From the NCBI GenBank assembly GCA_003558085.1, contig PWMT01000027.1, positions 1 to 44,471 of the forward strand: a stretch of DNA of 44,471 nt. Reading direction: 5' to 3'. Shown piece after piece: positions 11,568-40,854 of the stretch; position 1 is the stretch's first letter; each line of letters starts with the position of its first letter. The position numbers and the translations under genes are program-made. The notes beneath the pieces are model-generated. The model saw nothing but the letters and a program-made list of their open reading frames with translations. It did not search any database and was not told the origin of the DNA. This DNA comes from Methanobacteriaceae archaeon. Lineage in GTDB: Archaea; Methanobacteriota; Methanobacteria; Methanobacteriales; Methanobacteriaceae.

Positions 11568-11803
11568 TATTTTACCCCAAATATCAATTTTGATTATTAA
11601 TATCTGTTTATCTTAATATAAATCTCTATTATAGAAAAAATAATCAATTCTTCACCATTAAAACTTTTTTTTTATAGTTTTATAAGGCTAATCTTTAATT
11701 AAAAACATCATATATTTTTTATTTAATAAACTAAATTCCATAAGGCCTTTATTATTTTGGCAAATTTTATATTATTGTAAAAGAGAAATAAATGGTTATG
11801 GTC

Positions 11804-13057
11804 ATGCAGATTTCTACCGATGTTAGCGGAAGAAGTGGTATAGATTGTGGGGGTTTTTGCAAGTTCTGTTTTTATAAAAATGTTGATTTTAATAATTTAA
11901 AACCCATAGGTTGTGTAAATTGCCCTCCCCATACAAAAGGATGCTCTTATTGTCAAAGTATTATGGATAGAGTATCCAGTGATTATAAACCTCTTTATAA
12001 CGTTTTAGAAGACCTGGTGCAAAAATTTTCAAAAATTAATTGGAGTACCTTAAATCCTAAAGATCTTCAGATACTGGTAATCGGGGGAGCGGATATATTT
12101 AACTATCCCGAGCTCTACAAGCTTGTTTCTAAATTAAAAGAACTTCCATTTTCATTACATTTGGGATATACTAGTGGAAAACCTATAAAAAATCATAAAA
12201 TGCCTGAAAAATTGATTTCATTAGGGGTGGATGAGGTGAGTTTTTCAATTTTTTCCACAAATCCAGAAATGAGAAGAAAATGGATGAGGGATACCAGTCC
12301 TGATCAATCCATTAAAGGTTTTAAAATCTTCTCTGAAAACATTGATCTCAATGCATCTGCTGTAATTATTCCCGGAGTAAATGATGGAGAGCAACTAATT
12401 GAAACCTGCGTAAATCTAGAAGATTGGGGTATAAAATCATTTGCCTTAAGAAGATTTGCTAATTTCAACTATCAAGGACTTATATTGAATAAAAAACCAA
12501 TATTGGATGGAATAACCCCTCAAACTTATGAAGAATTCCAATCATTAGTCTACAAGGTTTCTGAAGAATTTTCTTTCAAAGTAATTGGTTTTCCCTTATA
12601 TTACTCTAAAAAAGATTTACCCTTCGCCATATTGAAAAAAAATAACCAAAGCATGCTTAGAGAATTACCTAAAATCAAAACAAAAGCTTCAGTTTTAACT
12701 GGCAAATTAGCTTCACCTTTTTTGAAAAAATTTTTTGAATTAGTTGATGATTTGAATCTGGTGAATGTTATTACTCTGGGAAAAGAAATCGCTGATTTAA
12801 TTACCCAAGAAGATTTGGAGTTAATGGACCTTGCTGAAGTTAAATCTAATGTGATTATTCCCAGAGGGGCTTTGGTTCATGATAAAGAAGTTAAGAAAAT
12901 TTTAAATAGTGACGGTAAGTTTAGAAAAATGGTTAGGGGTTCTTTGGATTTAACCTATCCTTATAATGAAAATGTAGATGATTCCCAAGAAGATTTCAAA
13001 AAATTTGAACTAAAATGTTTTAAAGATTTGATTGATACCATAAATTCTTTTAAATAA
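11804..13057 (+). CDS. Mmp10-like cobalamin-dependent radical SAM protein (methanogenesis marker 10 homologue, divergent)
   Basis: N-terminal DCGGFCKFC (CxxxCxxC), a second CxxC-x6-CxxC loop, HLGYTSGK, IIPGVNDG, RFAN...GLIL and IADLIT..DL, matching the Mmp10 family layout. ATG at 11792 is an alternative start. Confidence 0.8.
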   Translation: MQISTDVSGRSGIDCGGFCKFCFYKNVDFNNLKPIGCVNCPPHTKGCSYCQSIMDRVSSDYKPLYNVLEDLVQKFSKINWSTLNPKDLQILVIGGADIFNYPELYKLVSKLKELPFSLHLGYTSGKPIKNHKMPEKLISLGVDEVSFSIFSTNPEMRRKWMRDTSPDQSIKGFKIFSENIDLNASAVIIPGVNDGEQLIETCVNLEDWGIKSFALRRFANFNYQGLILNKKPILDGITPQTYEEFQSLVYKVSEEFSFKVIGFPLYYSKKDLPFAILKKNNQSMLRELPKIKTKASVLTGKLASPFLKKFFELVDDLNLVNVITLGKEIADLITQEDLELMDLAEVKSNVIIPRGALVHDKEVKKILNSDGKFRKMVRGSLDLTYPYNENVDDSQEDFKKFELKCFKDLIDTINSFK

Positions 13058-13212: not shown

Positions 13213-13764
13213 ATGTCAATTAAAAGGATTATATTAATAATAATCACCTTTTCTATATTGTCTGTTTTATTTTTAACATTGATTTTTGAAACTCAATTTC
13301 TAAGTTGGATTGAACTTAACTGGTTTTCTCTGCTGCTAATAATTCTAATAGTTGCAATTTTTATAGCATTTATATTAGGATTTTCAATAGATTATTTATA
13401 TCCGAAGATTTCCAAGAAGTCAAGATTTTCACAAACCACCCAACTTAAAAAACCCCGCAAAAAATTAGCAAAACTAATTTTACCCAGAGATAATCAATTA
13501 ATTATAGATTATTACGAAAGAGTTTATGGTAGAGCAGATTTTATAGGATTATTGGTAATAGATAAACTAAATTTCATAGGAAGAGAGCATTTCAAAATTA
13601 CTAAATTGGATGATGGAATTTATATTGAAGATCTTGATACCAAAAACGGAACAAAGGTTAATGGGGAAGAAATAAAAGGCTTAGATAAAGTTAAACTGAA
13701 AAATAATGATTCAATACTGGTTGCCAAGGTATTAGAACTAAAATTCGTGACAGAATCTGAATAA
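13213..13764 (+). CDS. Membrane-anchored FHA-domain protein
   Basis: Two N-terminal TM helices; C-terminal FHA motifs YGR, REHF and IEDLDTKNGTKVNG. Confidence 0.88.
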   Translation: MSIKRIILIIITFSILSVLFLTLIFETQFLSWIELNWFSLLLIILIVAIFIAFILGFSIDYLYPKISKKSRFSQTTQLKKPRKKLAKLILPRDNQLIIDYYERVYGRADFIGLLVIDKLNFIGREHFKITKLDDGIYIEDLDTKNGTKVNGEEIKGLDKVKLKNNDSILVAKVLELKFVTESE

Positions 13765-14988: not shown

Positions 14989-16455
14989 TTAATCAACTTT
15001 TTGCGTATCAATGCCCATCACAGCATACATCACATTCCCGGGGTCACTGATGGAGGTTATGCTGATCCCTGATTTTTTTCCAATAGATGATCGACTATTA
15101 GGATTGGTTTTATCATTAAATATACGATTTTCAGTTTCTCCAGGAAAAACATCACCATGATCTCCTTGAACTTCTAAAAATTTTTTTAACTCATCCTCTG
15201 TTGGTCTGAATTTATTAGAATCCTTTACCATAAATATGCGTTTTTCTAATTCATTTTTACCATCTGCTTGGTTTAAGCGTATAAAAAGCGATTTAGGGTC
15301 TAAATTGGGAAACTTTATATCTTTATAATTTTCTTCATTAACATGCCAGATTAAAAGACCCTCACCAGGTATATGTTCATCAAAGCCTTTTTTCGCACGA
15401 TTTTCAACTAAGAAATATTCTTTACCTTCTGAGGAGGGAATAACTAATTTATAAATTTTACTACCCTTATTAAAACCAGTGATTTCATATTTTTTAGGTC
15501 TCTTGTTGATGTTGATAGGTTCCTGCCATCCTAAATGCATTTTGCACCAGGCACTCAAATGTCCGGGGGTTTTCCCATCATCATTATAGTTTCCTCCGGC
15601 CATTAAACACCATTTTCCTACTATATTGGATGACCTGTCTGGTAGATACAGATCTGGAAGTCCTAAACTATGGCCCATCTCATGACAATATCCTCCCAGA
15701 TCAAAAGAAGGGATTTCATTGTTTATGATATAATTATCTACTATAAGACCATCTTCTAATTGTATAGGCTCTTTTAACTGATTTCTATGGGGAGATATAT
15801 CCTTATAATTCATGGTTCTATGAGATCCTTTACCGGCACACACCACTATGAGTAAATCTATACACCCATTTTTTTTATTATCAAACTTTGTAAAATCCAG
15901 GGTGCTGCTATTTTGAGCCTCTAAAACTATTTCTTTAACTAAATCGGTTGCTTTTGGCATTCGCCATCCTAAAGTATCCTGATTCATATTTTCTGAATCC
16001 ACATAGCTCGAATAATTATTATTGGCTTCGAACCAACCTAAAACTTCTCCATCAATTTCCAGCTTGCCTCCGGAATTTTCTATAAAATAATTTTTCATAC
16101 TCTTTTTTTTATCATCAAATAAAAGTTCTCTAAATTCTTCCTTTTTAGTGTTATTTGTTTTATCTTTAAAATTTACCAGCAATACCAGAGCATTTTTTTT
16201 ACCTATAACTGGATCTTTTTTACGATAATCAATAGCTGAATCCGCCTTAAATTGATCCAACATTAGATAATTGCGGATCCAATTTTGTTTACATTGTTCA
16301 TAGGTTCTTGTAGTTACACCAGTCTTTTTTTCAATTTCATCTTCATCTAAGTCCTTCTTCAACAAGTTGACGAATTGCAACATCCTTTTAAATACTTCGG
16401 GATGAGATCTTCTCAGATGCACTCCTGTAACGATTTCTTCTAGATTTTTATTCAT
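14989..16455 (-). CDS. M6 family (immune inhibitor A-like) zinc metalloprotease
   Basis: LVLLVNFKD, SMKNYFIENSGG, HEMGHSLGLPDLY, WCLMAGG Met-turn, HLSAWCK, EYFLVENR and GLLIWHV. No signal peptide. SD GGGGGT. Confidence 0.9.
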   Translation of the reverse strand: MNKNLEEIVTGVHLRRSHPEVFKRMLQFVNLLKKDLDEDEIEKKTGVTTRTYEQCKQNWIRNYLMLDQFKADSAIDYRKKDPVIGKKNALVLLVNFKDKTNNTKKEEFRELLFDDKKKSMKNYFIENSGGKLEIDGEVLGWFEANNNYSSYVDSENMNQDTLGWRMPKATDLVKEIVLEAQNSSTLDFTKFDNKKNGCIDLLIVVCAGKGSHRTMNYKDISPHRNQLKEPIQLEDGLIVDNYIINNEIPSFDLGGYCHEMGHSLGLPDLYLPDRSSNIVGKWCLMAGGNYNDDGKTPGHLSAWCKMHLGWQEPININKRPKKYEITGFNKGSKIYKLVIPSSEGKEYFLVENRAKKGFDEHIPGEGLLIWHVNEENYKDIKFPNLDPKSLFIRLNQADGKNELEKRIFMVKDSNKFRPTEDELKKFLEVQGDHGDVFPGETENRIFNDKTNPNSRSSIGKKSGISITSISDPGNVMYAVMGIDTQKVD

Positions 16456-16602: not shown

Positions 16603-16773
16603 TTGAGTCGAGAAGAAGAAATAAAAAATTTAGAAGATTTCAAAGATGGCTATAAAAAAGGTTTTGCTGATGGATATATGGAGGCTATGAAAGAAGTCTT
16701 TAAAATGCAGGAAAAAATGGATAAAGAAAGTATGACCACACCGGGTGTTCAACCAAGATCAATTTGGTGGTAA
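16603..16773 (+). CDS. Small 56-aa protein MSREEEIKNLEDFKDGYKKGFADGYMEAMKEVFKMQEKMDKESMTTPGVQPRSIWW (absent from the ORF track)
   Basis: Hand translation: TTG at 16603 after a G8 SD-like run (16588-16595), purine-rich coding-like composition, TAA at 16771-16773, then a T-tract. Confidence 0.8.
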   Translation: MSREEEIKNLEDFKDGYKKGFADGYMEAMKEVFKMQEKMDKESMTTPGVQPRSIWW

Positions 16774-16952: not shown

Positions 16953-19181
16953 TTGATTATGGTGTTAGTTTTCTTTTTAATCTTATCTCCAATACATGCT
17001 AGTAATGAAAAACCCTCGGTTGTATTTGATGAGACTGGCCCTTATTATAATTTTTTTACTATATTCAATTTAGGTGGGACCGGTTCTTCTATTTTTGCTA
17101 ATCTACTAGAATCAAATGGGTTTTCAGTTTCGCGATTGACAGGGTCTCCTATAACTGACCAGAATCTTCAAGAACATGATGTTTTAATTGTAATGGCCCC
17201 TGCACGTAATTACACAGATGATGAAATTCAATCCATAAAAAAATTTGTTAATGATGGTGGGGGATTGTTTTTATTAGGTGATAATTGGGGGGTGGAGGAT
17301 GGTAATGAAAATTATGCCTATAATCTACTTGCCCAAAGTTTTGGATTAAGTTTTTCTTATAATGAAGCTTTAGTAGACTCTGAAAATTATATAGGATTGC
17401 ACGACTTTGTTATAATTTCTGATATTCAATCTAGCTCGCTAACAACTAATCTAGACAAATTAAATTACATGCAAGGATCTTATATTAAAGATCCAGGTTC
17501 TTCAGAAATTCAGGCCTTATCTAGTTCTAATTCATGGGGAGATCAATTAACACTAACAGATAGCGGATTTTCCGAACCGGATTTTAATAAAGATCCAAAT
17601 GAAGTTTCAGGTCCTCTACCTGTGCTTACTACTTTAGATTATGGCCAGGGAAGAGTAGTATTTTTTGGTTCGGTAAGAAGCTTTAATAATGCTTGGATTT
17701 ATAGGAGCGATAACTGGAAACTGGGAATTAACAGTGTAAACTGGTTAGCAGGTAGACCAGCACCCAGCACTTATGAAGAAGCAGGCTTATTTTCACCTAC
17801 CCTAGCTGATTTACAAAATTATATTATGGGATTTTTTGGATACAGTTTACTACTTATAAGTGCTTTAGTTTTCAAAATAAACAAAGATAAGAAAGATAAA
17901 AAATCAAAACCATTTAAAATCATTAAAAACTGGAAATATAATGCTCTAATGGCTTTAAATGCAATATTTATAATTTTAGTAATTATTATCTTTATTAGCT
18001 CTAATATGATATTTTTTGATATAGCAAACCATCAGTTATTTGACGTTAACTTGGGGTATACTCTTTTAATTACGGGAATTCCATTAATTTTCTTCTCCAG
18101 TTTAATTCTCTATAACATATACGCCCGTTTAAGAATTAAGGTTAATTTTAACTATTTTAGCATTTTTATACTTATTTTATTTACAGGTTTAACCGCATTT
18201 CTGGGAAATTTATTCTCTTTTCCTATAATGGGTATTTTTACCGGTTTAAGTTTATTTTTAATTTTACCTTTTGCTGTTAATCTCTGGATTAACCATAAAT
18301 ATGGTTCGGAGATTATCATTGAAGGTAAAGAATTCAACCGTCTAGAAAAACTTTCTCTTAAATCATTACCCTACGAGCTTCAATCCATTTATCAAGAATC
18401 TTCCTTTATTGGTGAAGGTGGTTTTGGTCGTGTATTTAAGGCTCAAAGAAATGATGGTCAGGATGTTGCCATAAAGATACCAAAAAGCTTTGATAAAAGG
18501 TCGGAGAAGATTTTTGTTAGTGAAGTGGCCAACTGGGAGAATTTAATCCATCCCCACATAGTTAGGTTATATGACTACAAGATCTTGCCTATACCCTACC
18601 TTGAAATGGAGTACTGCGAATCTTCATTAAGTTATGGACCAAAAACCGTGGAAGAATCAGTTTCCGTCATCTATGAAGTGGCACAGGGATTAAAATATGC
18701 TCATGGTAAAAATATTATCCATGGAGATATAAAAAACACCAATATCATGAGCTGTAATGGAATTTATAAAATTTCCGATTGGGGACTGAGCAAATTACAT
18801 CTTGATGAATCAGTTACTGTTTCCGGGGTTACTCCCCATTATGCTGCACCAGAACAAATATCTCGTGAATTTGGAAAAGCAGATAGAAGAACCGATATTT
18901 ATCAGCTGGGAATTATATTCTATGAACAATTAACTGGAAATTTACCCTTTAAAGGAGAAATTTCAAAAGTTTATGACTCTATATTAAATACCCAGCCAGT
19001 TTTTCCTTCGGTAATAAACCCAGATGCAGCTTTAGCTGATAAAATAGTAATGAAATGTTTAAGCAAAAACAAAAAAGAAAGATACAACTCAATGGATGAA
19101 TTACTCCAAGATCTGGAACCATTCTATAAACCAAGATCAACAAGCGATAAAACGGTTTTTTTAGATAAAGAAGTAGATTAA
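16953..19181 (+). CDS. Receptor-like Hanks-type Ser/Thr protein kinase (extracellular GldG/GATase-like domain, about 5 TM, kinase)
   Basis: Signal peptide; VLIVMAP...FVNDGGGLFLLGD...GQGRVVFFG (GldG/GIFT-like); TM bundle; GEGGFGRV, VAIK, HGDIKNTN, DWGL, YAAPEQ and DIYQLG. The true start may be ATT at 16917. Confidence 0.92.
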   Translation: MIMVLVFFLILSPIHASNEKPSVVFDETGPYYNFFTIFNLGGTGSSIFANLLESNGFSVSRLTGSPITDQNLQEHDVLIVMAPARNYTDDEIQSIKKFVNDGGGLFLLGDNWGVEDGNENYAYNLLAQSFGLSFSYNEALVDSENYIGLHDFVIISDIQSSSLTTNLDKLNYMQGSYIKDPGSSEIQALSSSNSWGDQLTLTDSGFSEPDFNKDPNEVSGPLPVLTTLDYGQGRVVFFGSVRSFNNAWIYRSDNWKLGINSVNWLAGRPAPSTYEEAGLFSPTLADLQNYIMGFFGYSLLLISALVFKINKDKKDKKSKPFKIIKNWKYNALMALNAIFIILVIIIFISSNMIFFDIANHQLFDVNLGYTLLITGIPLIFFSSLILYNIYARLRIKVNFNYFSIFILILFTGLTAFLGNLFSFPIMGIFTGLSLFLILPFAVNLWINHKYGSEIIIEGKEFNRLEKLSLKSLPYELQSIYQESSFIGEGGFGRVFKAQRNDGQDVAIKIPKSFDKRSEKIFVSEVANWENLIHPHIVRLYDYKILPIPYLEMEYCESSLSYGPKTVEESVSVIYEVAQGLKYAHGKNIIHGDIKNTNIMSCNGIYKISDWGLSKLHLDESVTVSGVTPHYAAPEQISREFGKADRRTDIYQLGIIFYEQLTGNLPFKGEISKVYDSILNTQPVFPSVINPDAALADKIVMKCLSKNKKERYNSMDELLQDLEPFYKPRSTSDKTVFLDKEVD

Positions 19182-19195
19182 AAATTTATAGATTA

Positions 19196-19972
19196 TTAAT
19201 TTAAACATCTAACTGATTTCATTATTTCTTGGGCATTAGTTATTTTTTTTTCTAAATCAAGTATTATATAGGCTTTATTACCTCTGCTTAAGCTGGAAGA
19301 TAGAATTAACTGTTTTTCTCCGATTAATTTAGCTCCATCTACCGGGGTATGTCCCACTATCATGGCCTGGCATCCAACATTTTTTAAAAATGAATCGATG
19401 TCATTATTATCATAATCCCCATAACGGTTCCATAAAAGTCCTAGCAGTTTCTGGTTATTCAAATAACTTACATCTGTTATATGGATAACATCTTCAATAC
19501 TGTTAACTTCTTTTGCAGGTCCCGCATGGCTAATGAATACTTTATTCCCGGTTTTAACAGCTATGGGAAGTTTTCTAAAGAAATCCTGATATTCTTTTAA
19601 TTTATCTAGCCATTTATCCTGAAATTTCTCTTTTAATAAAATTTCAAAGGTAGAGTTTAAATCTTCCATGTTCTTATAAATGGCAACTGAAGTGATAACT
19701 GACCACTCATGGTTTCCTAATAGGACATGAAAGTTGGTATCTTTTTCAAAATTAGATTTAACAGTCTCTAATAATTCAATTGATTCATCTTTATCATGGT
19801 CTATAGCATGTATAAAATCACCAATTAATACCAGATGATTATCTTCTTTTTTAAAATCCTTCCAAATATCCATTAATTTATTAAAATCAGTTAAATTACC
19901 ATGAATATCTGCAATTATCAAGGCCTTACCTTTTTTGGGCAATTCAACCAGACTACCCCTATAATTATGCAT
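19196..19972 (-). CDS. PPP/calcineurin-like metallophosphoesterase (putative Ser/Thr phosphatase)
   Basis: ADIHGN, GDFIH, LGNHE, SHAG, LLWN and GHTP motifs. Confidence 0.85.
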   Translation of the reverse strand: MHNYRGSLVELPKKGKALIIADIHGNLTDFNKLMDIWKDFKKEDNHLVLIGDFIHAIDHDKDESIELLETVKSNFEKDTNFHVLLGNHEWSVITSVAIYKNMEDLNSTFEILLKEKFQDKWLDKLKEYQDFFRKLPIAVKTGNKVFISHAGPAKEVNSIEDVIHITDVSYLNNQKLLGLLWNRYGDYDNNDIDSFLKNVGCQAMIVGHTPVDGAKLIGEKQLILSSSLSRGNKAYIILDLEKKITNAQEIMKSVRCLN

Positions 19973-20104: not shown

Positions 20105-20518
20105 TTGCATAAGGGAAAATTGATGGGTATACTGGCCGGAATTACTTTTTTTATTATTATTTTAGCGTTGCTTAGTTATCTACAAACAGATTTTGACCAG
20201 AAGTTAATTATTGCGGTAAATAATGAAGAACCTACCTCAATTTTGATTACTCAAATTGAAGATGAAGCTGCAAGAGAGAGATCTAAAGCAAAAAATAACT
20301 TATTATCCAACATGTTGGATAGAAAATTTTGGTTTCAAATTGATAGTTTTAATGAATCTGATATTCAATTTTCTAAAGGAGTGTATATTAGACATATGAA
20401 ATTTATTAATGAGCAGGAGGAGTTAAGAAAAGATTTGGTAACTAAAAAAATTAATGTAGAAGAATTTACATTAGAAAGCAAAAGATTGGAAGAACTTTAC
20501 TACGCTAAGTTCTTTTGA
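20105..20518 (+). CDS. Hypothetical membrane-anchored helical protein
   Basis: SD GGGGAGG, N-terminal TM helix and a charged helical remainder. Confidence 0.7.
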   Translation: MHKGKLMGILAGITFFIIILALLSYLQTDFDQKLIIAVNNEEPTSILITQIEDEAARERSKAKNNLLSNMLDRKFWFQIDSFNESDIQFSKGVYIRHMKFINEQEELRKDLVTKKINVEEFTLESKRLEELYYAKFF

Positions 20519-27738: not shown

Positions 27739-28221
27739 TTAATTTAATATTAACAACCTATAATTTAGTATAGAAGCAAAGGTCACCCAGAGAAGATAGG
27801 GAACCATGATCCAAGCAGCTGGTCGGGATATGCGATAAAAACTGATAATGGTGGCTACAATTGCCACCCATAAAAAAATTATTTCCACGAAACTAGCCCG
27901 AAGATTATTGAAAGTGAAAAAGAGGATAGACCAGAAGAAATTTAAACCCAACTGTAGCGAAAAGAGTCCTAATGCAATTTTAACTTCTCTTCTTTTAAAA
28001 CCTTCCCTATAAACTAAAAAGGCAGCTAAACCCATAAGAATATATAAAACAGTCCAGACTGGACCAAAGATCCAATTGGGAGGAGTCCATTCTGGTTTAA
28101 TAAGATTAGCATACCATATATTCATGTCTCCTGGATTAAAAAATCCACTAAGACCCCCTACCATTAAACAAGCGAATATAAAAAGGATTAATAGTGGAAA
28201 ATCCTTTCTTTGCAATTTCAT
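27739..28221 (-). CDS. tspO: TspO/MBR tryptophan-rich sensory protein
   Basis: WYANLIKPEWTPPNWIFGPVWTVLY, LNFFWSILFF and PYLLWVTFA motifs. Confidence 0.93.
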   Translation of the reverse strand: MKLQRKDFPLLILFIFACLMVGGLSGFFNPGDMNIWYANLIKPEWTPPNWIFGPVWTVLYILMGLAAFLVYREGFKRREVKIALGLFSLQLGLNFFWSILFFTFNNLRASFVEIIFLWVAIVATIISFYRISRPAAWIMVPYLLWVTFASILNYRLLILN

Positions 28222-28242
28222 TTTATCAGAAAAAAGTGGGTT

Positions 28243-28716
28243 TTAATTTTTTAAAGCTACTATCTCCTTTACATCCACCAGCTTCCATACAAAGGAACAT
28301 TCCATTTGAATTAAACAGGCCAAAGGGTCATCAGGATCATGACCCAAGGCAGCCATTATTTTTTTAGAAAGACCCTTGTTTTCAATTAATGCTGCAAACT
28401 TTGTCCTGATTTCTCGCTGTTTTTCAGGATCGGTTTCTTCTACAATGCGGCCTCTTAGGGTTACGAACTTATATTCGGATAGATCAGGAGCATATTCTTC
28501 TATTTGCACTGCCACATGGGGGTTGTCTTTCAAGCGCTGGATTTTTTTTCCATACTTGGTGGATAGAAAATAAATGTGTTTATCATCAAAAAGATATAAA
28601 AATGGTGCAATGTAGGGATATTCTCCATTAAACGCTAAACGACTCATGAAATTATTATTTATAAGTTCATCATACTCTTCTTTTTCCATGAAAGGTATCT
28701 TATATAAACTCATCAT
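28243..28716 (-). CDS. Pyridoxamine 5'-phosphate oxidase-like flavin-binding protein (NimA-like)
   Basis: SRLAF, YPYIAPF and GKKIQRLKDNPHVAV split-barrel motifs. Confidence 0.85.
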   Translation of the reverse strand: MMSLYKIPFMEKEEYDELINNNFMSRLAFNGEYPYIAPFLYLFDDKHIYFLSTKYGKKIQRLKDNPHVAVQIEEYAPDLSEYKFVTLRGRIVEETDPEKQREIRTKFAALIENKGLSKKIMAALGHDPDDPLACLIQMECSFVWKLVDVKEIVALKN

Positions 28717-28780
28717 TACCACCTTCTTATTAATATTATTTTAATCTATATCATTAATTCTAAAATTAATCTACTTTAAG

Positions 28781-30163
28781 TTAATCACCATTTACCACTG
28801 GATAATCAGCATTTAACCAAGCATTCATACTTCCTAAAACACTGCTTAAATTAGTATAACCATTCTGTTTAAGTATACTGCAGGCAGTAGTGGATTTATG
28901 TCCTGAATCACAGTAAACCACTACTTTTTTATCTTGAGGCACTTCTTTAATTCTTTCAGGAATATCTCCCACCCAAATATGGTGGGCTCCTGCAATACGC
29001 CTCTTTTTATAGTCATTAAATTTACGCACATCTAATAAGAATACGTCTTCTTTTCTATCTAAAACTTTTTTTAGTTGATGAACAGACCACATATCCAGCT
29101 TACCTACTTCTTGACCAGCTAAATACCATTTAGGAAAACCACCTCCCAGATAACCATAAATATTATCATAAGCTAGTCGTATTAACTGACGGAGCATAGG
29201 ATCTAACTGGCCTTCATTATCATTCACCAGGATGATAGGGTCTTCGTAATTAACAAAATAGCCTACAAAACCAGATAAACCTTCTCTCCATATATTTAAG
29301 CTGTGGGGAATATGCCCTCCACCAAAACTGGTTGGTTTACGAATATCAATAATTTGTGCATCCTTATTCATCATTTCCTTAATTTGAGGATATTTTAAAG
29401 GTCTTAAGTAAGGCAGTACACCTAGAACTTCTGCACCTTTCTGATTGTTTTCTTCCATCTTCTTAAAGTAAGGAGGGGTATAAAGTTTTTCCCTTAATTT
29501 AAATTTTATGAATTGTTCTTTGTTCATTCTAAGAACTGGATTAGTTTTCTGCTCATATCCTATAGTGCTGAGATCATGGTCTCGAATATCCGCTCCACAT
29601 ACTGAACCAGCGCCATGGGCAGGGCAGATGATTACATTATCCCCTAGTGGTAATATTTTTTCTTGTATGCTTTCATATAATAATTGAGCCATCCAAGATA
29701 CTTGTGATTCTCCCAGCAAATCACATCTTCCTAACTCACCAGCAAAGATTAAATCACCAGTAAATATTAGGTAGGGATCTTCTGATACACTTTTATCTCG
29801 AAGTAAAATAGATATACTTTCAGGAGTATGGCCCGGTGTTTCTAGAACTTCTAATTCCAAAGAACCTAGTTCAAATTTATCTCCATCAAAAACTTCCATC
29901 CCATACTCAAATTCCAATTTAGAACCATGATAAATAAGTGCCCCGGTTATATCTTCCAGTTCCCGGGAACCAATGGTATAATCCTCATTGCGGTGAGTTT
30001 CAAACACATATTTTATCTCTAGATCATGGTCCTGGGCTAAATCCAAATAGACGTCTACGTCTCTTCGAGGATCTACAACTACGCCTTCACCACCATCACC
30101 TATTAAATAAGAATGATGGGCTATACCTTCTGATTTAATCAATTCCAGTATCAAGGTTAACAT
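28781..30163 (-). CDS. MBL-fold hydrolase fused to two rhodanese domains (persulfide dioxygenase-like)
   Basis: SYLI, VVDPRRD, TPGHTPES, FTGD, PAHGAGS, GHIPHS and the C-terminal active-loop YCDSGHKS. Confidence 0.9.
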   Translation of the reverse strand: MLTLILELIKSEGIAHHSYLIGDGGEGVVVDPRRDVDVYLDLAQDHDLEIKYVFETHRNEDYTIGSRELEDITGALIYHGSKLEFEYGMEVFDGDKFELGSLELEVLETPGHTPESISILLRDKSVSEDPYLIFTGDLIFAGELGRCDLLGESQVSWMAQLLYESIQEKILPLGDNVIICPAHGAGSVCGADIRDHDLSTIGYEQKTNPVLRMNKEQFIKFKLREKLYTPPYFKKMEENNQKGAEVLGVLPYLRPLKYPQIKEMMNKDAQIIDIRKPTSFGGGHIPHSLNIWREGLSGFVGYFVNYEDPIILVNDNEGQLDPMLRQLIRLAYDNIYGYLGGGFPKWYLAGQEVGKLDMWSVHQLKKVLDRKEDVFLLDVRKFNDYKKRRIAGAHHIWVGDIPERIKEVPQDKKVVVYCDSGHKSTTACSILKQNGYTNLSSVLGSMNAWLNADYPVVNGD

Positions 30164-30514: not shown

Positions 30515-31459
30515 ATGGAATATATTATTGAAAGTTGGGATATTAGTAAAAAATTTGGTGATTTTACTGCAGTCAACTCAGTAAACCTCAAAGTACCCCG
30601 TAATAGTGTATATGGGGTGCTGGGACCTAATGGGGCTGGTAAAACCACTTTAATATCTATGTTATGTACAATACTCAAACCTACTTCTGGTAGAGCTGAA
30701 GTAAACGGCTATGATATTGTAAAAAATGCTAAAGAAGTTCGTGCTTCCATTGGAATTGTATTCCAATCTAGGGCTTTGGATGATATATTAACTGGAAGAG
30801 AGCATTTAGAGATGCATGCCGCCTTATACGGCGTTCCGATGGATTTACGCAATGAGAGAATTGAAGAGGTGCTTGATCTGATTGCTCTAGGGGATAAAGC
30901 AGATGAATTCATTAAAACTTACTCTGGTGGTATGAAAAGAAGATTAGAGATAGGAAGGGGTTTAATCCATCGCCCTAAAGTATTATTTTTAGATGAACCC
31001 ACACTGGGATTGGATCCTCAGACTAGGGAAAATATCTGGCAATATATACGTAAATTAAACCAGACAGAGGATATCACCGTACTTTTAACCACACATTATA
31101 TGGATGAAGCTGATAAATTATGTGATGAGGTAGCCATCATTAATCAAGGACAGATTATTCGGGCTGATTCTCCTCAAAATCTCAAAAGAGAACTTAAAGC
31201 AGATACTTTAACTCTTACCTTAGACGGTGGAGAAACTTTTGTGGAAGAGATTAAGAAAAAAGAATATGTTAAGGAAGCTTATAGTTTAGATGGTGAAATA
31301 AAACTTATGGTGGAGAGAGGTGAAAACCTGATACCTGATGTGGTGAACTTTGCCACATCCCAGGGATATGTGATTAACTCCATCGAATTGGAGCATCCTA
31401 ATTTAGAGGATGTATTTATTAAATATACAGGTTGTAAAATTAGTGAAGAAGGTAAATGA
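30515..31459 (+). CDS. ABC transporter ATP-binding protein (DrrA-like)
   Basis: GPNGAGKT, YSGGMKRR, LFLDEPT and TTHY motifs; C-terminal LEDVF. Confidence 0.95.
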   Translation: MEYIIESWDISKKFGDFTAVNSVNLKVPRNSVYGVLGPNGAGKTTLISMLCTILKPTSGRAEVNGYDIVKNAKEVRASIGIVFQSRALDDILTGREHLEMHAALYGVPMDLRNERIEEVLDLIALGDKADEFIKTYSGGMKRRLEIGRGLIHRPKVLFLDEPTLGLDPQTRENIWQYIRKLNQTEDITVLLTTHYMDEADKLCDEVAIINQGQIIRADSPQNLKRELKADTLTLTLDGGETFVEEIKKKEYVKEAYSLDGEIKLMVERGENLIPDVVNFATSQGYVINSIELEHPNLEDVFIKYTGCKISEEGK

Positions 31460-31506
31460 TAAAAATTTTTCATCTTTAATAAAATTAAGTTATTTGGAGC
31501 ATAATT

Positions 31507-32271
31507 ATGGCAGAATTAGAAGGAATCTACACTATTTGGCTGAGAGAAACTAAAAGATACATCCGTTACCGTTCAAGAATCATCACCTCAGTAGTATCCC
31601 CCATGTTATGGTTAATCATATTTGGAACTGGATTAGGGGCAGCTATTCGCTTTGGAGATATAGAAGGAGGATATCAGATATTTATTTATCCAGGTATTAT
31701 CGGACAAACCATACTCTTTACTTCTATTTTCTCAGGGGTTTCAGTGATTATTGATCGACAATACGGGTTTTTGAAGGAAATACTGGTCGCTCCATTATCC
31801 CGTCCTTCTATCGTACTAGGTAAGTCTCTGGGTATCAGTACCCATGCCCTCATCCAGGGTGTTATCTTACTAATACTTTCCTTTGTGGTGGGGGTTAGTA
31901 TGACTCCTATGATTTTCCTGGCCAGTGTATTTATCATAGTTCTCATTTCTTCTGGTCTGGCTGGTGTGGGACTTACTATTGCCTCTTTTACTGATAGTAT
32001 GGAAGGATTTAATCTGATCATGAGTTTTATAGTATTGCCCATGTTTTTACTAAGCGGGGCTTTGTTCCCAATTACCGGACTCCCCACCTGGCTGCAGGCA
32101 GCAGTTTATGTAAATCCACTGACTTATGGAGTGGATGCTTTAAGGTATATTATTTTAGGGGAAGCTGTACTTCCTTTAGGGATAAACATACTGGTATTAA
32201 TCATCTTCGCCATAATAACCATATCAGTTTCTGCTATACTCTTCAGTAAAAAGGAGCAGAGCTTAATGTAA
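31507..32271 (+). CDS. ABC-2 type permease (DrrB-like)
   Basis: Six TM helices, DRQYGFLKEILVAP and LSGALFP...NPLTYGVDALR motifs. Confidence 0.93.
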   Translation: MAELEGIYTIWLRETKRYIRYRSRIITSVVSPMLWLIIFGTGLGAAIRFGDIEGGYQIFIYPGIIGQTILFTSIFSGVSVIIDRQYGFLKEILVAPLSRPSIVLGKSLGISTHALIQGVILLILSFVVGVSMTPMIFLASVFIIVLISSGLAGVGLTIASFTDSMEGFNLIMSFIVLPMFLLSGALFPITGLPTWLQAAVYVNPLTYGVDALRYIILGEAVLPLGINILVLIIFAIITISVSAILFSKKEQSLM

Positions 32272-38718: not shown

Positions 38719-40854
38719 ATGAAAGATGAAAAAAAGAAGAAAAAGATGCCTGAAAAAGGGAAACTTAATGATCTAGAAGAATTTAGAGAATATCCTGAAG
38801 GGAAAAAATTAACTACAAATCAAGGAGTAAAAGTTAGCCATACTGATGATTCCCTTAAAGCTGGTGAGAGAGGACCAACTTTAATGGAAGATTTTCACTT
38901 TAGAGAGAAGCTGACTCATTTTGATCATGAGCGCATCCCGGAAAGAGCGGTGCATGCTAGAGGAACTGGTGTTCATGGTTACTTTGAATGCTATAAATCC
39001 ATGTCTGAGTATACTAGTGCCAAGTTTCTTCAAGAATCAGGTCAAAGAACTCCTGTATTTGTTCGTTTTTCAACTGTTGTAGGATCTAGGGGATCTGCAG
39101 ATACTGTAAGAGATGTTAGGGGATTTGCTACTAAGTTCTATACTGAAGAAGGTAATTATGATCTGGTGGGCAATAATATACCTATTTTCTTCATTCAGGA
39201 TGCTATTAAGTTTCCAGATATAGTTCATTCTATCAAACCTGAACCTGATAATGAAATTCCTCAAGCTTCTGCAGCTCATGATACTTTTTGGGATTTTGTA
39301 GTTAGTGCTCCTGAAACAACTCATATGATTATGTGGCTTTTATCTGATAGGGCTATACCTCGAAGCTTAAGAATGATGGAAGGGTTCAGTGTAAATACAT
39401 TTAGATTTGTAAATGCTGAAGGAAAGGCCCGTTTCATCAAATTCATCTGGAAGCCAATGCTTGGAACACATCAACTTGTCTGGGATGAAGCTCAAAAGAT
39501 TGCTGGTAAAGATCCTGATTATCACAGGCGTGATCTATATGAAGCAATAGAAATGGACCAGTATCCTGAGTTTGAACTTTACGTCCAGATGATTGAGGAA
39601 GAGGATGAGCATAAATTTGATTTCGATATTCTTGATCCAACTAAACACTGGCCAGAAGAACTTGTACCTCCTATGAAAATAGGAAAACTTGTTTTAAACA
39701 GAACACCAGATAATTTCTTTGCTGAAGTTGAACAAGTAGCATTTCATCCGGGAAATGTAGTTCCAGGAATAGATTTCAGTAATGATCCATTACTTCAAGG
39801 TAGACTCTTTTCCTATCTGGACACTCAACTTATACGTTTAGGCGGCCCCAATTTTCATGAAATACCAGTAAATCGGCCCTTAGCAGATATACACACTAAC
39901 CAGCGAGATGGATATCATCGTACAATGATTAATACAGGAAAAGTAAGCTATTCACCAAATACACTGGATAATAATGATCCAAAACCTGCAACTAAAGAAG
40001 AAGGTGGCTATATCCATTATATGGAGAAGGTAGAGGGTAAAAAAATAAGAGAAAGAAGTGAAAAATTTAAAGACTTCTTTAGCCAGGCCAGATCATTCTA
40101 TAACAGTATGTCTGAAACTGAGAAGAAACATATAATCAAAGCATTCCACTTTGAAGTTGGAAAGGTAAAATCTAAAGATGTAAGAGAAAAAGTAGTTGAA
40201 CTCTTTGCTAACGTGGATAAAAAACTGGCTACGAAAATTGCTGAAGGAGTAGGTGTTTTACCACCAGCTGAAGGTGAAGATTCAAGTGATGCAGATATTT
40301 TTCCATCATTCAGTATGGAAGATACAGTAAAAGATACAGTAGAAACTAGAATGGTAGCCCTACTGGCAGAAGAAGGTTTCAATTACCAAGAACTGATGAT
40401 GGTTAAAGATGCTTTTAAAAATGCAGGAGCAAACTGTAAAATTGTATCCAAGCACAGGGGAATGATTAAGGGAGATAATGGGCAAGAAGTTGAAGTTGAT
40501 AATAACTATCTTTCTACATCTTCCATCATGTTTGACGCTGTTTATGTGCCTGGTGGTAAAAATAGTGTGGAAACATTAAAAAAACAGGGATATGCACTTC
40601 ATTTTATAAATGAAGCCTTTAAACACTGTAAAACTATTGCGGCATCCAGTGAAGGTGTGGAACTATTTAGAGAATCAAATATAAATGGTGTCTCCTTTAC
40701 AAAGAAAGACGAAGAAAAACAAATAGTTTCCGATAATGGGGTGATTACTGCCGGAAGATCTGCAGATATGGAGGAATTTAAACAAAAATTTATGGATGCA
40801 GTTGCCATGCATCGGCACTGGGAAAGAGAAATGAAGGAGCGGGTGCCTGCCTAA
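38719..40854 (+). CDS. katE: Large-subunit heme catalase (HPII-type) with C-terminal DJ-1/PfpI-like domain
   Basis: FDHERIPERAVHARG, FVRFSTV, RGFATKFYT, VGNN and RLFSYLDTQ proximal Tyr motif; C-terminal FDAVYVPGG...HCK. Confidence 0.96.
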   Translation: MKDEKKKKKMPEKGKLNDLEEFREYPEGKKLTTNQGVKVSHTDDSLKAGERGPTLMEDFHFREKLTHFDHERIPERAVHARGTGVHGYFECYKSMSEYTSAKFLQESGQRTPVFVRFSTVVGSRGSADTVRDVRGFATKFYTEEGNYDLVGNNIPIFFIQDAIKFPDIVHSIKPEPDNEIPQASAAHDTFWDFVVSAPETTHMIMWLLSDRAIPRSLRMMEGFSVNTFRFVNAEGKARFIKFIWKPMLGTHQLVWDEAQKIAGKDPDYHRRDLYEAIEMDQYPEFELYVQMIEEEDEHKFDFDILDPTKHWPEELVPPMKIGKLVLNRTPDNFFAEVEQVAFHPGNVVPGIDFSNDPLLQGRLFSYLDTQLIRLGGPNFHEIPVNRPLADIHTNQRDGYHRTMINTGKVSYSPNTLDNNDPKPATKEEGGYIHYMEKVEGKKIRERSEKFKDFFSQARSFYNSMSETEKKHIIKAFHFEVGKVKSKDVREKVVELFANVDKKLATKIAEGVGVLPPAEGEDSSDADIFPSFSMEDTVKDTVETRMVALLAEEGFNYQELMMVKDAFKNAGANCKIVSKHRGMIKGDNGQEVEVDNNYLSTSSIMFDAVYVPGGKNSVETLKKQGYALHFINEAFKHCKTIAASSEGVELFRESNINGVSFTKKDEEKQIVSDNGVITAGRSADMEEFKQKFMDAVAMHRHWEREMKERVPA

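Follow-up and report, generated by a model that had tools for sequence, protein, structure and literature searches.

An Mmp10-like radical SAM paralog of Methanobacteriaceae lies in a peptide–kinase gene module and may methylate the module's small peptide

The window, the whole stretch of 44,471 nt that was analyzed, represents the entire contig C155 of a 1.86-Mb Methanobacteriaceae genome with a completeness of 95.9%. A group of neighboring genes in this window encodes an Mmp10-like enzyme together with a short peptide, a peptidase, a receptor-type kinase and further putative signaling proteins (Table 1). Elsewhere in the window, a DrrAB-type ABC-2 exporter is encoded at positions 30515-32271, 10 kb off the module, and is absent among the conserved neighbors of other loci. 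In this strict anaerobe, genes related to oxidative and sulfur stress are also found: a large-subunit catalase (HPII-like), TspO and a metallo-beta-lactamase/rhodanese fusion are encoded at 38719-40854 and 27739-30163. A scan for sigma-70 promoters, a model unsuited to archaea, remained at chance level (56 vs. 51.1).

Table 1. Genes of the module in the window.
Feature	Position	Strand	Basis
Mmp10-like B12-dependent radical SAM enzyme, paralog subtype A	11804..13057	+	family model, PDB search, AlphaFold model, alignment
Two-helix membrane protein with C-terminal FHA domain	13213..13764	+	Pfam FHA (E 6e-11); hydropathy
Pentapeptide-repeat protein with two C-terminal membrane helices	13807..14892	+	Pfam Pentapeptide_3; hydropathy
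M6-family zinc metallopeptidase (HEXXH)	14989..16455	-	TIGR03296, 178.5 bits (cut-off 110.8)
56-aa precursor-like peptide, candidate substrate	16603..16773	+	homolog alignment; G-rich ribosome-binding site; single copy in genome
Receptor-type Ser/Thr kinase	16953..19181	+	signal peptide, DUF4350/IFT52-GIFT ectodomain, five membrane helices, kinase domain (VAIK/HGD/DWG)
Calcineurin-like metallophosphoesterase, candidate cognate phosphatase	19196..19972	-	Pfam Metallophos; 27/40 loci
Single-helix membrane protein of about 135-137 aa, candidate co-receptor	20105..20518	+	alignment; 30/34 loci

The enzyme matches the family model of Mmp10 (TIGR03278) with 439.7 bits at a cut-off of 350, and its relatives carry the name Mmp10 in databases. 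A sequence search of the PDB returned Mmp10 of M. acetivorans as the sole match (7QBS, E 4e-84). The AlphaFold model (pLDDT 93.6) superposes on 7QBS-7QBV with TM scores of 0.89-0.91, and 417 columns can be matched to 7QBS with 38% identity. It shows an N-terminal radical SAM barrel and a C-terminal four-stranded cobalamin domain with a Leu cap, in which residues L336 and R221 are retained. Based on this model, the window enzyme is a member of the class II cobalamin radical SAM enzymes. Its residues are numbered from the first ATG at 11792 (421 aa), while homologs start at the Met at 11804, as assumed in the initial annotation. The bare labels Y23, F24, E54, G89, Y115, D156, M209, R210, C321, L322 and E378 denote Mmp10 positions, and Y126, D167, R221, L336 and Asn392 are the window equivalents. 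All cysteines of the CxxxCxxC motif (C19/C23/C26) and of the iron loop (C41/44/51/54) are present in the window protein, in agreement with the initial annotation.

The same annotation had described a paralog lacking adjacent mcr genes, and this description holds. None of the 35 window ORFs scanned is an mcr or mrt gene, and a search of the genome for a canonical mmp10 adjoining mcr uncovered such a copy on contig C110, where it is oriented divergently from mcrBDCGA and is 42% identical to the window protein. The genome contains mcrB, mcrA and the McrA target motif once each, all on contig C110. Since the canonical mmp10 adjoins the sole mcr operon, the window gene is, by its position, not the McrA methyltransferase gene. 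For this genome, the single mcrA and mcrB beside the canonical mmp10 also led us to reject a second MCR isoenzyme, which we had considered as a substrate. The motifs named as canonical in the initial annotation (CKYCYF, GGGD, PGRA, RGPD.L) all occur in the C110 copy, and the divergent versions (CKFCFY, GGAD, PRGA, RGSLDL) occur in the window enzyme as stated. The first 2.6 kb of contig C110 (L001:876-2588) contain alpha/beta hydrolase-like and ester-cyclase-like ORFs; overlapping alternative frames suggest a higher GC content of this region, which is possibly foreign or mis-joined.

A phylogenetic tree was calculated from 231 non-redundant full-length sequences (269 before removal of duplicates), which were obtained by a homolog search and from the fetched loci. 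The window protein falls outside the canonical clade, into a separate clade of 143 of the 231 sequences (FastTree support 0.994, stem 0.44), so that the two Mmp10-type copies of this genome belong to different clades. The paralog clade is sister to the canonical sequences of Methanobacteriales and more diverse than these, with a mean identity of 54% compared to 70%. Two subtypes can be distinguished within it: subtype A, to which the window enzyme belongs, carries CxxCFY, RRFAN and LT[HNY]PY, and subtype B carries CxxCYF and SRF[AV]N. The complete module with a subtype B enzyme is present in Methanobacterium oryzae DSM 11106 (L187), and M. alkalithermotolerans encodes a protein of subtype A (P0006). 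A position of the window enzyme nested within the other lineage was not statistically established (p-AU 0.06). Paralog genes or fragments were found in at least 34 of 314 genomes of the family, where they are patchily distributed, tandemly multiplied and sometimes broken. Two or three enzyme copies are present in 9 of 31 loci, seven of which pair A with B, and in six loci a class I methyltransferase adjoins subtype B. Decaying modules were also observed: the enzyme of L153 is split into four pieces, L166 contains an enzyme fragment after a shortened kinase, and in L050 a deletion has removed the kinase, the membrane protein and the start of the enzyme; some of the breaks are possibly sequencing errors. 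Two loci of another family (L164, L165) contain a split kinase without peptidase or peptide.

We compared the residues of known function in Mmp10 with their counterparts in the paralogs. According to the available part of PMC8828468, Y115 is the cluster-ligating Tyr of Mmp10, Y23 sits over the cobalamin and not on the cluster, D156 is a residue of the cation site, L322 forms the cobalamin cap, and E378 binds the guanidinium group of the target Arg and accounts for the strict Arg specificity. In Mmp10, Y115, D156 and the iron loop have been shown to be essential for catalysis. The three cluster cysteines and the four iron-loop cysteines are conserved in 142-143 of 143 paralogs, the equivalents of Y115, D156 and L322 in every one of them and that of R210 in 138. 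The initial annotation had taken the Tyr after the third cluster Cys to be a cluster ligand and regarded it as lost. This does not apply, as the true ligand is Y115 (Y126 in the window protein), and the altered residue is Y23, which is replaced by Phe in 98/143 paralogs, with F24 being replaced by Tyr in 97/143. The exchange of Y23 need not stop catalysis because this residue lies over the cobalamin, off the cluster, and csDUF512 also contains Phe at this position (PMC12931638, as far as its text is available). DUF512 proteins form MeCbl and 5'-dA, as stated in the accessible portion of PMC13331322.

The substrate side shows a different picture. Glu at position 378 is present in 88/88 canonical sequences and in only 7/143 paralogs; a gap-free profile alignment places Asn392 of the window protein at this position. 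One residue further on, 53 of the 97 subtype-A sequences carry a Glu that might stand in for E378, among them the window protein (E393). E54, a Glu in 86/88 canonical sequences, is replaced by Arg in 90/143 paralogs, as is M209 in 98/143. Moreover, G89 of the GGD motif is replaced by Ala in 133/143 (GGD to xAD) and C321 by Asp in 142/143. The Ser of RGSLDL is private to the window sequence, and RGP is retained in 140/143 paralogs. Taking these residues together, we infer that the cofactor chemistry was probably kept and the substrate pocket rebuilt. Several canonical Mmp10 proteins of other orders (L088-L143) show Asp, Asn or Ser instead of Cys321 and Ser instead of R210, some of them with long C-terminal extensions.

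The genomic context of the paralogs was analyzed in 40 loci of at least 8 kb, with duplicates between collections included, and in a set of 34 with one locus per genome. Among the loci of at least 8 kb, the kinase lies near 38/40 paralogs and 0/40 canonical genes, and mcrB near 0/40 paralogs. Counted per genome, the kinase is present in 31/34 and the small membrane protein in 30/34; of the three genomes missing the kinase, one has a contig that ends inside the gene, one has a contig of 2.7 kb, and in the third a deletion has removed part of the enzyme as well. In most loci, the enzyme directly follows the kinase and the small membrane protein on the same strand. The M6 peptidase, the small membrane protein, the phosphatase and the FHA protein are common in paralog loci (FHA protein in 20/40, duplicates included). 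The pentapeptide-repeat protein (7/40) is confined to one module lineage and also occurs in the enzyme-less loci L144, L156 and L160. In one lineage (L039, L041, L043, L045, L047-L050, L053), the module has a molybdopterin-oxidoreductase domain protein and a TPR protein as its neighbors.

The small membrane protein, which almost always adjoins the kinase, has no match in Pfam. Its soluble part is predicted to be all-helical (pLDDT 86), and a fold search with it returned nothing at E < 0.001. Distant homologs of 164-180 aa stand alone at L162:9591 and L163:9685, without kinase or peptide, and about ten further weak matches were seen. Throughout the family, the kinase belongs to the non-RD type (HGD, DWG), which is characteristic of pattern-recognition receptors in plants and animals. 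The kinase ectodomain is similar to the GIFT domain of IFT52. Kinases linked to subtype-A enzymes do not form one clade (p-AU 8e-5), indicating that the link between enzyme and kinase is not a single inherited block; the window kinase is sister to the kinase of an enzyme-less locus.

No signal peptide or membrane helix was found in the window M6 peptidase, which is a candidate for the leader-removing protease. No signal sequence was detected on the peptide precursor either, and no conserved exporter among the loci compared. In a simple pattern count, the C-terminus of the peptidase carries the GY repeat of the peptide leader in 28 of 39 M6-bearing loci; the window peptidase lacks it. Five paralog-bearing genomes, one of them a fragmentary assembly, gave no M6 match when searched with the window peptidase as query in a setup that had no positive control. 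A putative correlation between this GY tail and the leader length was not clean and is not claimed. In five loci (L039:6106-7260; L044, L048, L049, L153), enzyme copies are followed by a membrane-anchored trypsin-like protease with a zinc ribbon, which could perform a second processing step outside the cell.

The peptide gene is present in 25 of the 27 enzyme-bearing loci that contain DNA upstream of the kinase, the exceptions being a frameshift-rich assembly and a decayed locus. All 15 copies inspected are preceded by a G-rich ribosome-binding site. The peptides share a conserved GYKxG[YF]xDGY leader, a G[AV]xP(-like) linker and a variable, Trp/Pro-rich C-terminus, which ends with WW in the window copy. 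A profile search yielded 63 short proteins among the best 150 matches, 44 of them with Trp in the last four residues. The pN/pS ratio is 0.25 for the leader vs. 0.50 for the last nine codons (16 non-independent pairs); by this measure, the leader is under purifying selection and the tail freer to change. A conserved leader joined to a variable core is the layout known from precursors of RiPPs or pheromones. All 17 loci with an intact subtype-A enzyme have peptides ending in Trp, all five loci with only subtype B have Trp-Pro ends, and 5 of 15 enzyme-less loci end in Trp, a pattern that is confounded by kinship. The loci L057-L059, which lack M6, retain the Trp-Pro tail, and their GY leader is decaying. 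Because the tail is kept while the leader decays in these loci, the leader may serve the peptidase and the tail the enzyme or a receptor.

A second, inverted peptide gene with a tail unlike that of the main copy was found at L039:9746-9973 between two Mmp10-like copies, with broken versions in L070 and L079. We also considered a linker motif, [MLIV][PT]P[ED]x[RK]xx[MLI], as an enzyme-recognition site. It is confined to enzyme-bearing loci and absent from the window peptide, and it maps to one kinase clade, so it was discarded as independent support. An assignment of the peptide to the Yae1/Lto1-type GX3 adaptors was not supported, as the matches to Yae1_N (E 0.002-0.8) stay below the cut-off (best 18.4 vs. 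27.5 bits) and the peptide persists in 15 loci without the Fe-S enzyme. Searching the ESM Atlas with a peptide homolog gave scores of 0.80 or lower.

Modules without the enzyme were identified via the small membrane protein (found in 61/314 genomes, with 20 matches fetched) and via the kinase ectodomain (47/329 genomes of the class). This approach revealed 16 loci that encode the peptidase, the kinase and the membrane protein but lack an Mmp10-like gene; 15 of them carry the peptide. Among the matches listed (best 150 of 345, so that weak pieces may be missed), a single full-length Mmp10 match was present in 11 of the 16 genomes, four genomes were ambiguous, and in one a second module contains a broken paralog. 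No alternative tailoring enzyme was seen in the enzyme-less loci; on visual inspection of their first 80 residues, the neighbors were classed as housekeeping genes. Together with the loci harboring two or three copies, the enzyme-less loci show that, in terms of gene content, the enzyme is an optional addition to a module core formed by the peptide, the peptidase, the kinase and the membrane protein, as expected of tailoring enzymes.

What could be the substrate of this enzyme? The initial annotation had proposed a new one, perhaps an Arg of the neighboring peptide. A new substrate is indeed likely, with the 56-aa peptide being the best candidate. Arg as the target residue is unlikely: E378 is replaced, and an Arg occurs in the last 11 peptide residues in just 3 of the 17 loci with an intact subtype-A enzyme, although the window peptide itself has an Arg in its tail. 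On balance, and with somewhat better than even confidence, we propose that the enzyme C-methylates the peptide of its module, probably at Trp or Pro. The cofactor sites, the altered substrate contacts, the paralogy, the module membership and the precursor anatomy on which this proposal draws are features of sequence and model. A prediction of the complex of enzyme, peptide, SAM and 4Fe-4S cluster scored 0.02 (mark 0.32), which by the tool's own terms is uninformative either way, and no leader-binding (RRE) domain was found on the enzyme in Pfam and NCBIfam scans.

According to this proposal, mmp10 would have been duplicated in Methanobacteriaceae and one copy recruited as an optional tailoring enzyme for the GY-leader peptide of its own module. 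The 5'-deoxyadenosyl radical would abstract a hydrogen, and methylcobalamin would donate a methyl group to an unactivated carbon in the Trp/Pro-rich C-terminal tail, most likely at the terminal Trp or a neighboring Pro. The C-terminal carboxylate may be bound by the new arginines (E54 to Arg, M209 to Arg). Less well supported are the steps that would follow: the M6 peptidase would cut off the leader near G[AV]xP, the freed peptide of 6-10 residues would act on the receptor kinase together with the small membrane protein, and the FHA and phosphatase proteins would relay and reset the signal. Methylation would alter the specificity or stability of the peptide. That the peptide is the signal for the kinase is a tentative suggestion. 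Equally speculative is a wider picture of peptide signaling in Methanobacteriaceae, in which a precursor, optionally C-methylated at its tail, is cleaved in the cytoplasm by the M6 peptidase and sensed by a five-helix receptor Ser/Thr kinase with co-receptor, FHA adaptor and phosphatase, tail and methylation together providing strain-specific dialects. Because no exporter is conserved in the module, the peptide might be a danger signal released on cell damage.

Several observations speak against this proposal. The five genomes without an M6 match and the missing export route are among them, and kinship between the loci makes the counts look more independent than they are. In addition, the kinase and the small membrane protein accompany the enzyme just as consistently as the peptide, and the real partner could be either of these two proteins. 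The enzyme could thus act on a module protein other than the peptide, for example on the cytoplasmic portion of the kinase, on the M6 peptidase or on the FHA protein. The position of the enzyme gene directly behind kinase and membrane protein on one strand and the fact that the substrate of canonical Mmp10 is a large protein would fit this explanation. We nevertheless consider it unlikely: Mmp10 recognizes a short Pro-kinked peptide (PMC8828468, available part), to which the Trp/Pro tail is similar in size, tandem A and B copies and the added methyltransferase suit the tailoring of a peptide at several sites, and the peptide end varies with the enzyme subtype. We judge it similarly improbable that the peptide is an inhibitor or adaptor of the M6 protease acting through the shared GY repeats, for which we take Yae1/Lto1 or FliH as parallels, with the Mmp10-like protein serving as a cobalamin or redox sensor or performing non-methylating radical chemistry. 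The leader repeat at the M6 C-terminus, the Yae1_N matches, weak and all under the cut-off, and the changes of GGD to xAD and of C321 to Asp agree with this idea. The tail, however, is kept in the M6-less loci L057-L059 and must have a role apart from M6, and the invariance of residues essential in Mmp10 (Y115, D156, iron loop) favors retained methyl transfer.

Less probable still is a redundant or isoenzyme-specific Mmp10 that continues to methylate the Arg of McrA/MrtA. The score above the TIGR03278 cut-off, the database names and the adjacent E393 as a possible replacement of E378 are in line with it, but mcrA and mcrB each exist once, beside the canonical mmp10, in this 95.9%-complete genome, no paralog locus contains mcrB, and both substrate contacts, E54 and E378, are replaced. 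The patchy, tandemly multiplied and sometimes broken state of the paralogs also argues against this function. Finally, the enzyme could tailor the peptide to yield an antimicrobial product, with the kinase and its membrane partner sensing it for self-protection, an explanation that differs from our preferred reading solely in the role of the product. Indolicidin and tritrpticin are membrane-active Trp/Pro-rich peptides, and the likeness of the short, variable tails to them as well as the patchiness of the module (47/329 genomes of the class) would be compatible with such a product. Most tails of enzyme-bearing loci, however, have little positive charge, and a conserved exporter is missing from the loci compared; we regard this role as very unlikely.

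Mmp10 is treated as a single-purpose marker of methanogenesis. The paralog clade passes the marker cut-off and bears the name Mmp10, yet almost certainly does another job, so that annotations and marker counts can be misleading. In the openly accessible literature searched, nothing was found on the paralog clade or the module; supplements and subscription papers may mention such paralogs. Within this scope, the locus may represent a peptide-receptor module of a kind absent from the literature. If our proposal is true, this would be the first enzyme of the Mmp10/DUF512 class with a candidate substrate other than McrA. As this candidate is a short peptide accessible to synthesis, it offers a direct test of new chemistry in radical C-methylation, with the natural series of loci (no enzyme, A, B, A and B, added methyltransferase) as built-in controls. 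Should the peptide activate the kinase, a defined peptide-receptor pathway would exist in methanogens; the archaeal quorum-sensing signals named in the available part of PMC10223598 are only AHL-like, AI-2 and diketopiperazine.

Among the closest known systems is Mmp10 (TIGR03278; 7QBS-7QBV), with the same fold (TM 0.9), 38% identity and the same cofactor ligands. The window enzyme differs from it in the replaced E378 and E54, the swapped Y23/F24 and the change of GGD to GAD, and the paralogs are never found beside mcr but are accessory, patchy and often multiplied. The position divergent from the mcr operon that is characteristic of Methanobacteriales is held by the C110 copy and not by the window gene. 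Thus, the window enzyme deviates from Mmp10 in three tested features: E378, mcr adjacency and placement in the canonical clade. The class II enzymes of the DUF512 type (PDB 9CG1, 9CG2) also have a C-terminal cobalamin domain with a Leu cap, and csDUF512 shares the Phe at the Y23 position (PMC12931638, available text). Their identity to the window protein is only 16-18% (TM 0.46-0.51), and the latter possesses the iron loop and Tyr ligand of Mmp10.

In the polytheonamide RiPP cluster, the B12-dependent radical SAM methyltransferases are PoyB and PoyC. In its gene content, the module resembles such clusters: it has a small precursor gene whose leader is conserved and whose core varies, a co-located peptidase and optional, multiplied tailoring enzymes. 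Unlike them, it is archaeal, employs a class II enzyme with C-terminal cobalamin domain, shows neither an RRE nor an exporter, and is linked to a receptor Ser/Thr kinase. Bacillus ComQXP and streptococcal ComS/XIP are bacterial pheromone systems with modified or double-Trp peptides. The putative receptor of the module, which has a receptor-like topology, belongs to the Hanks-type kinases instead of being a histidine kinase or Rgg; it carries a DUF4350/GIFT ectodomain and has FHA and phosphatase partners. No sequence kinship to these systems was shown, and the precursor of the module has no signal peptide and no conserved exporter. What the module has in common with them is the arrangement of a short, variable, Trp-containing peptide gene beside a processing enzyme and a putative receptor.
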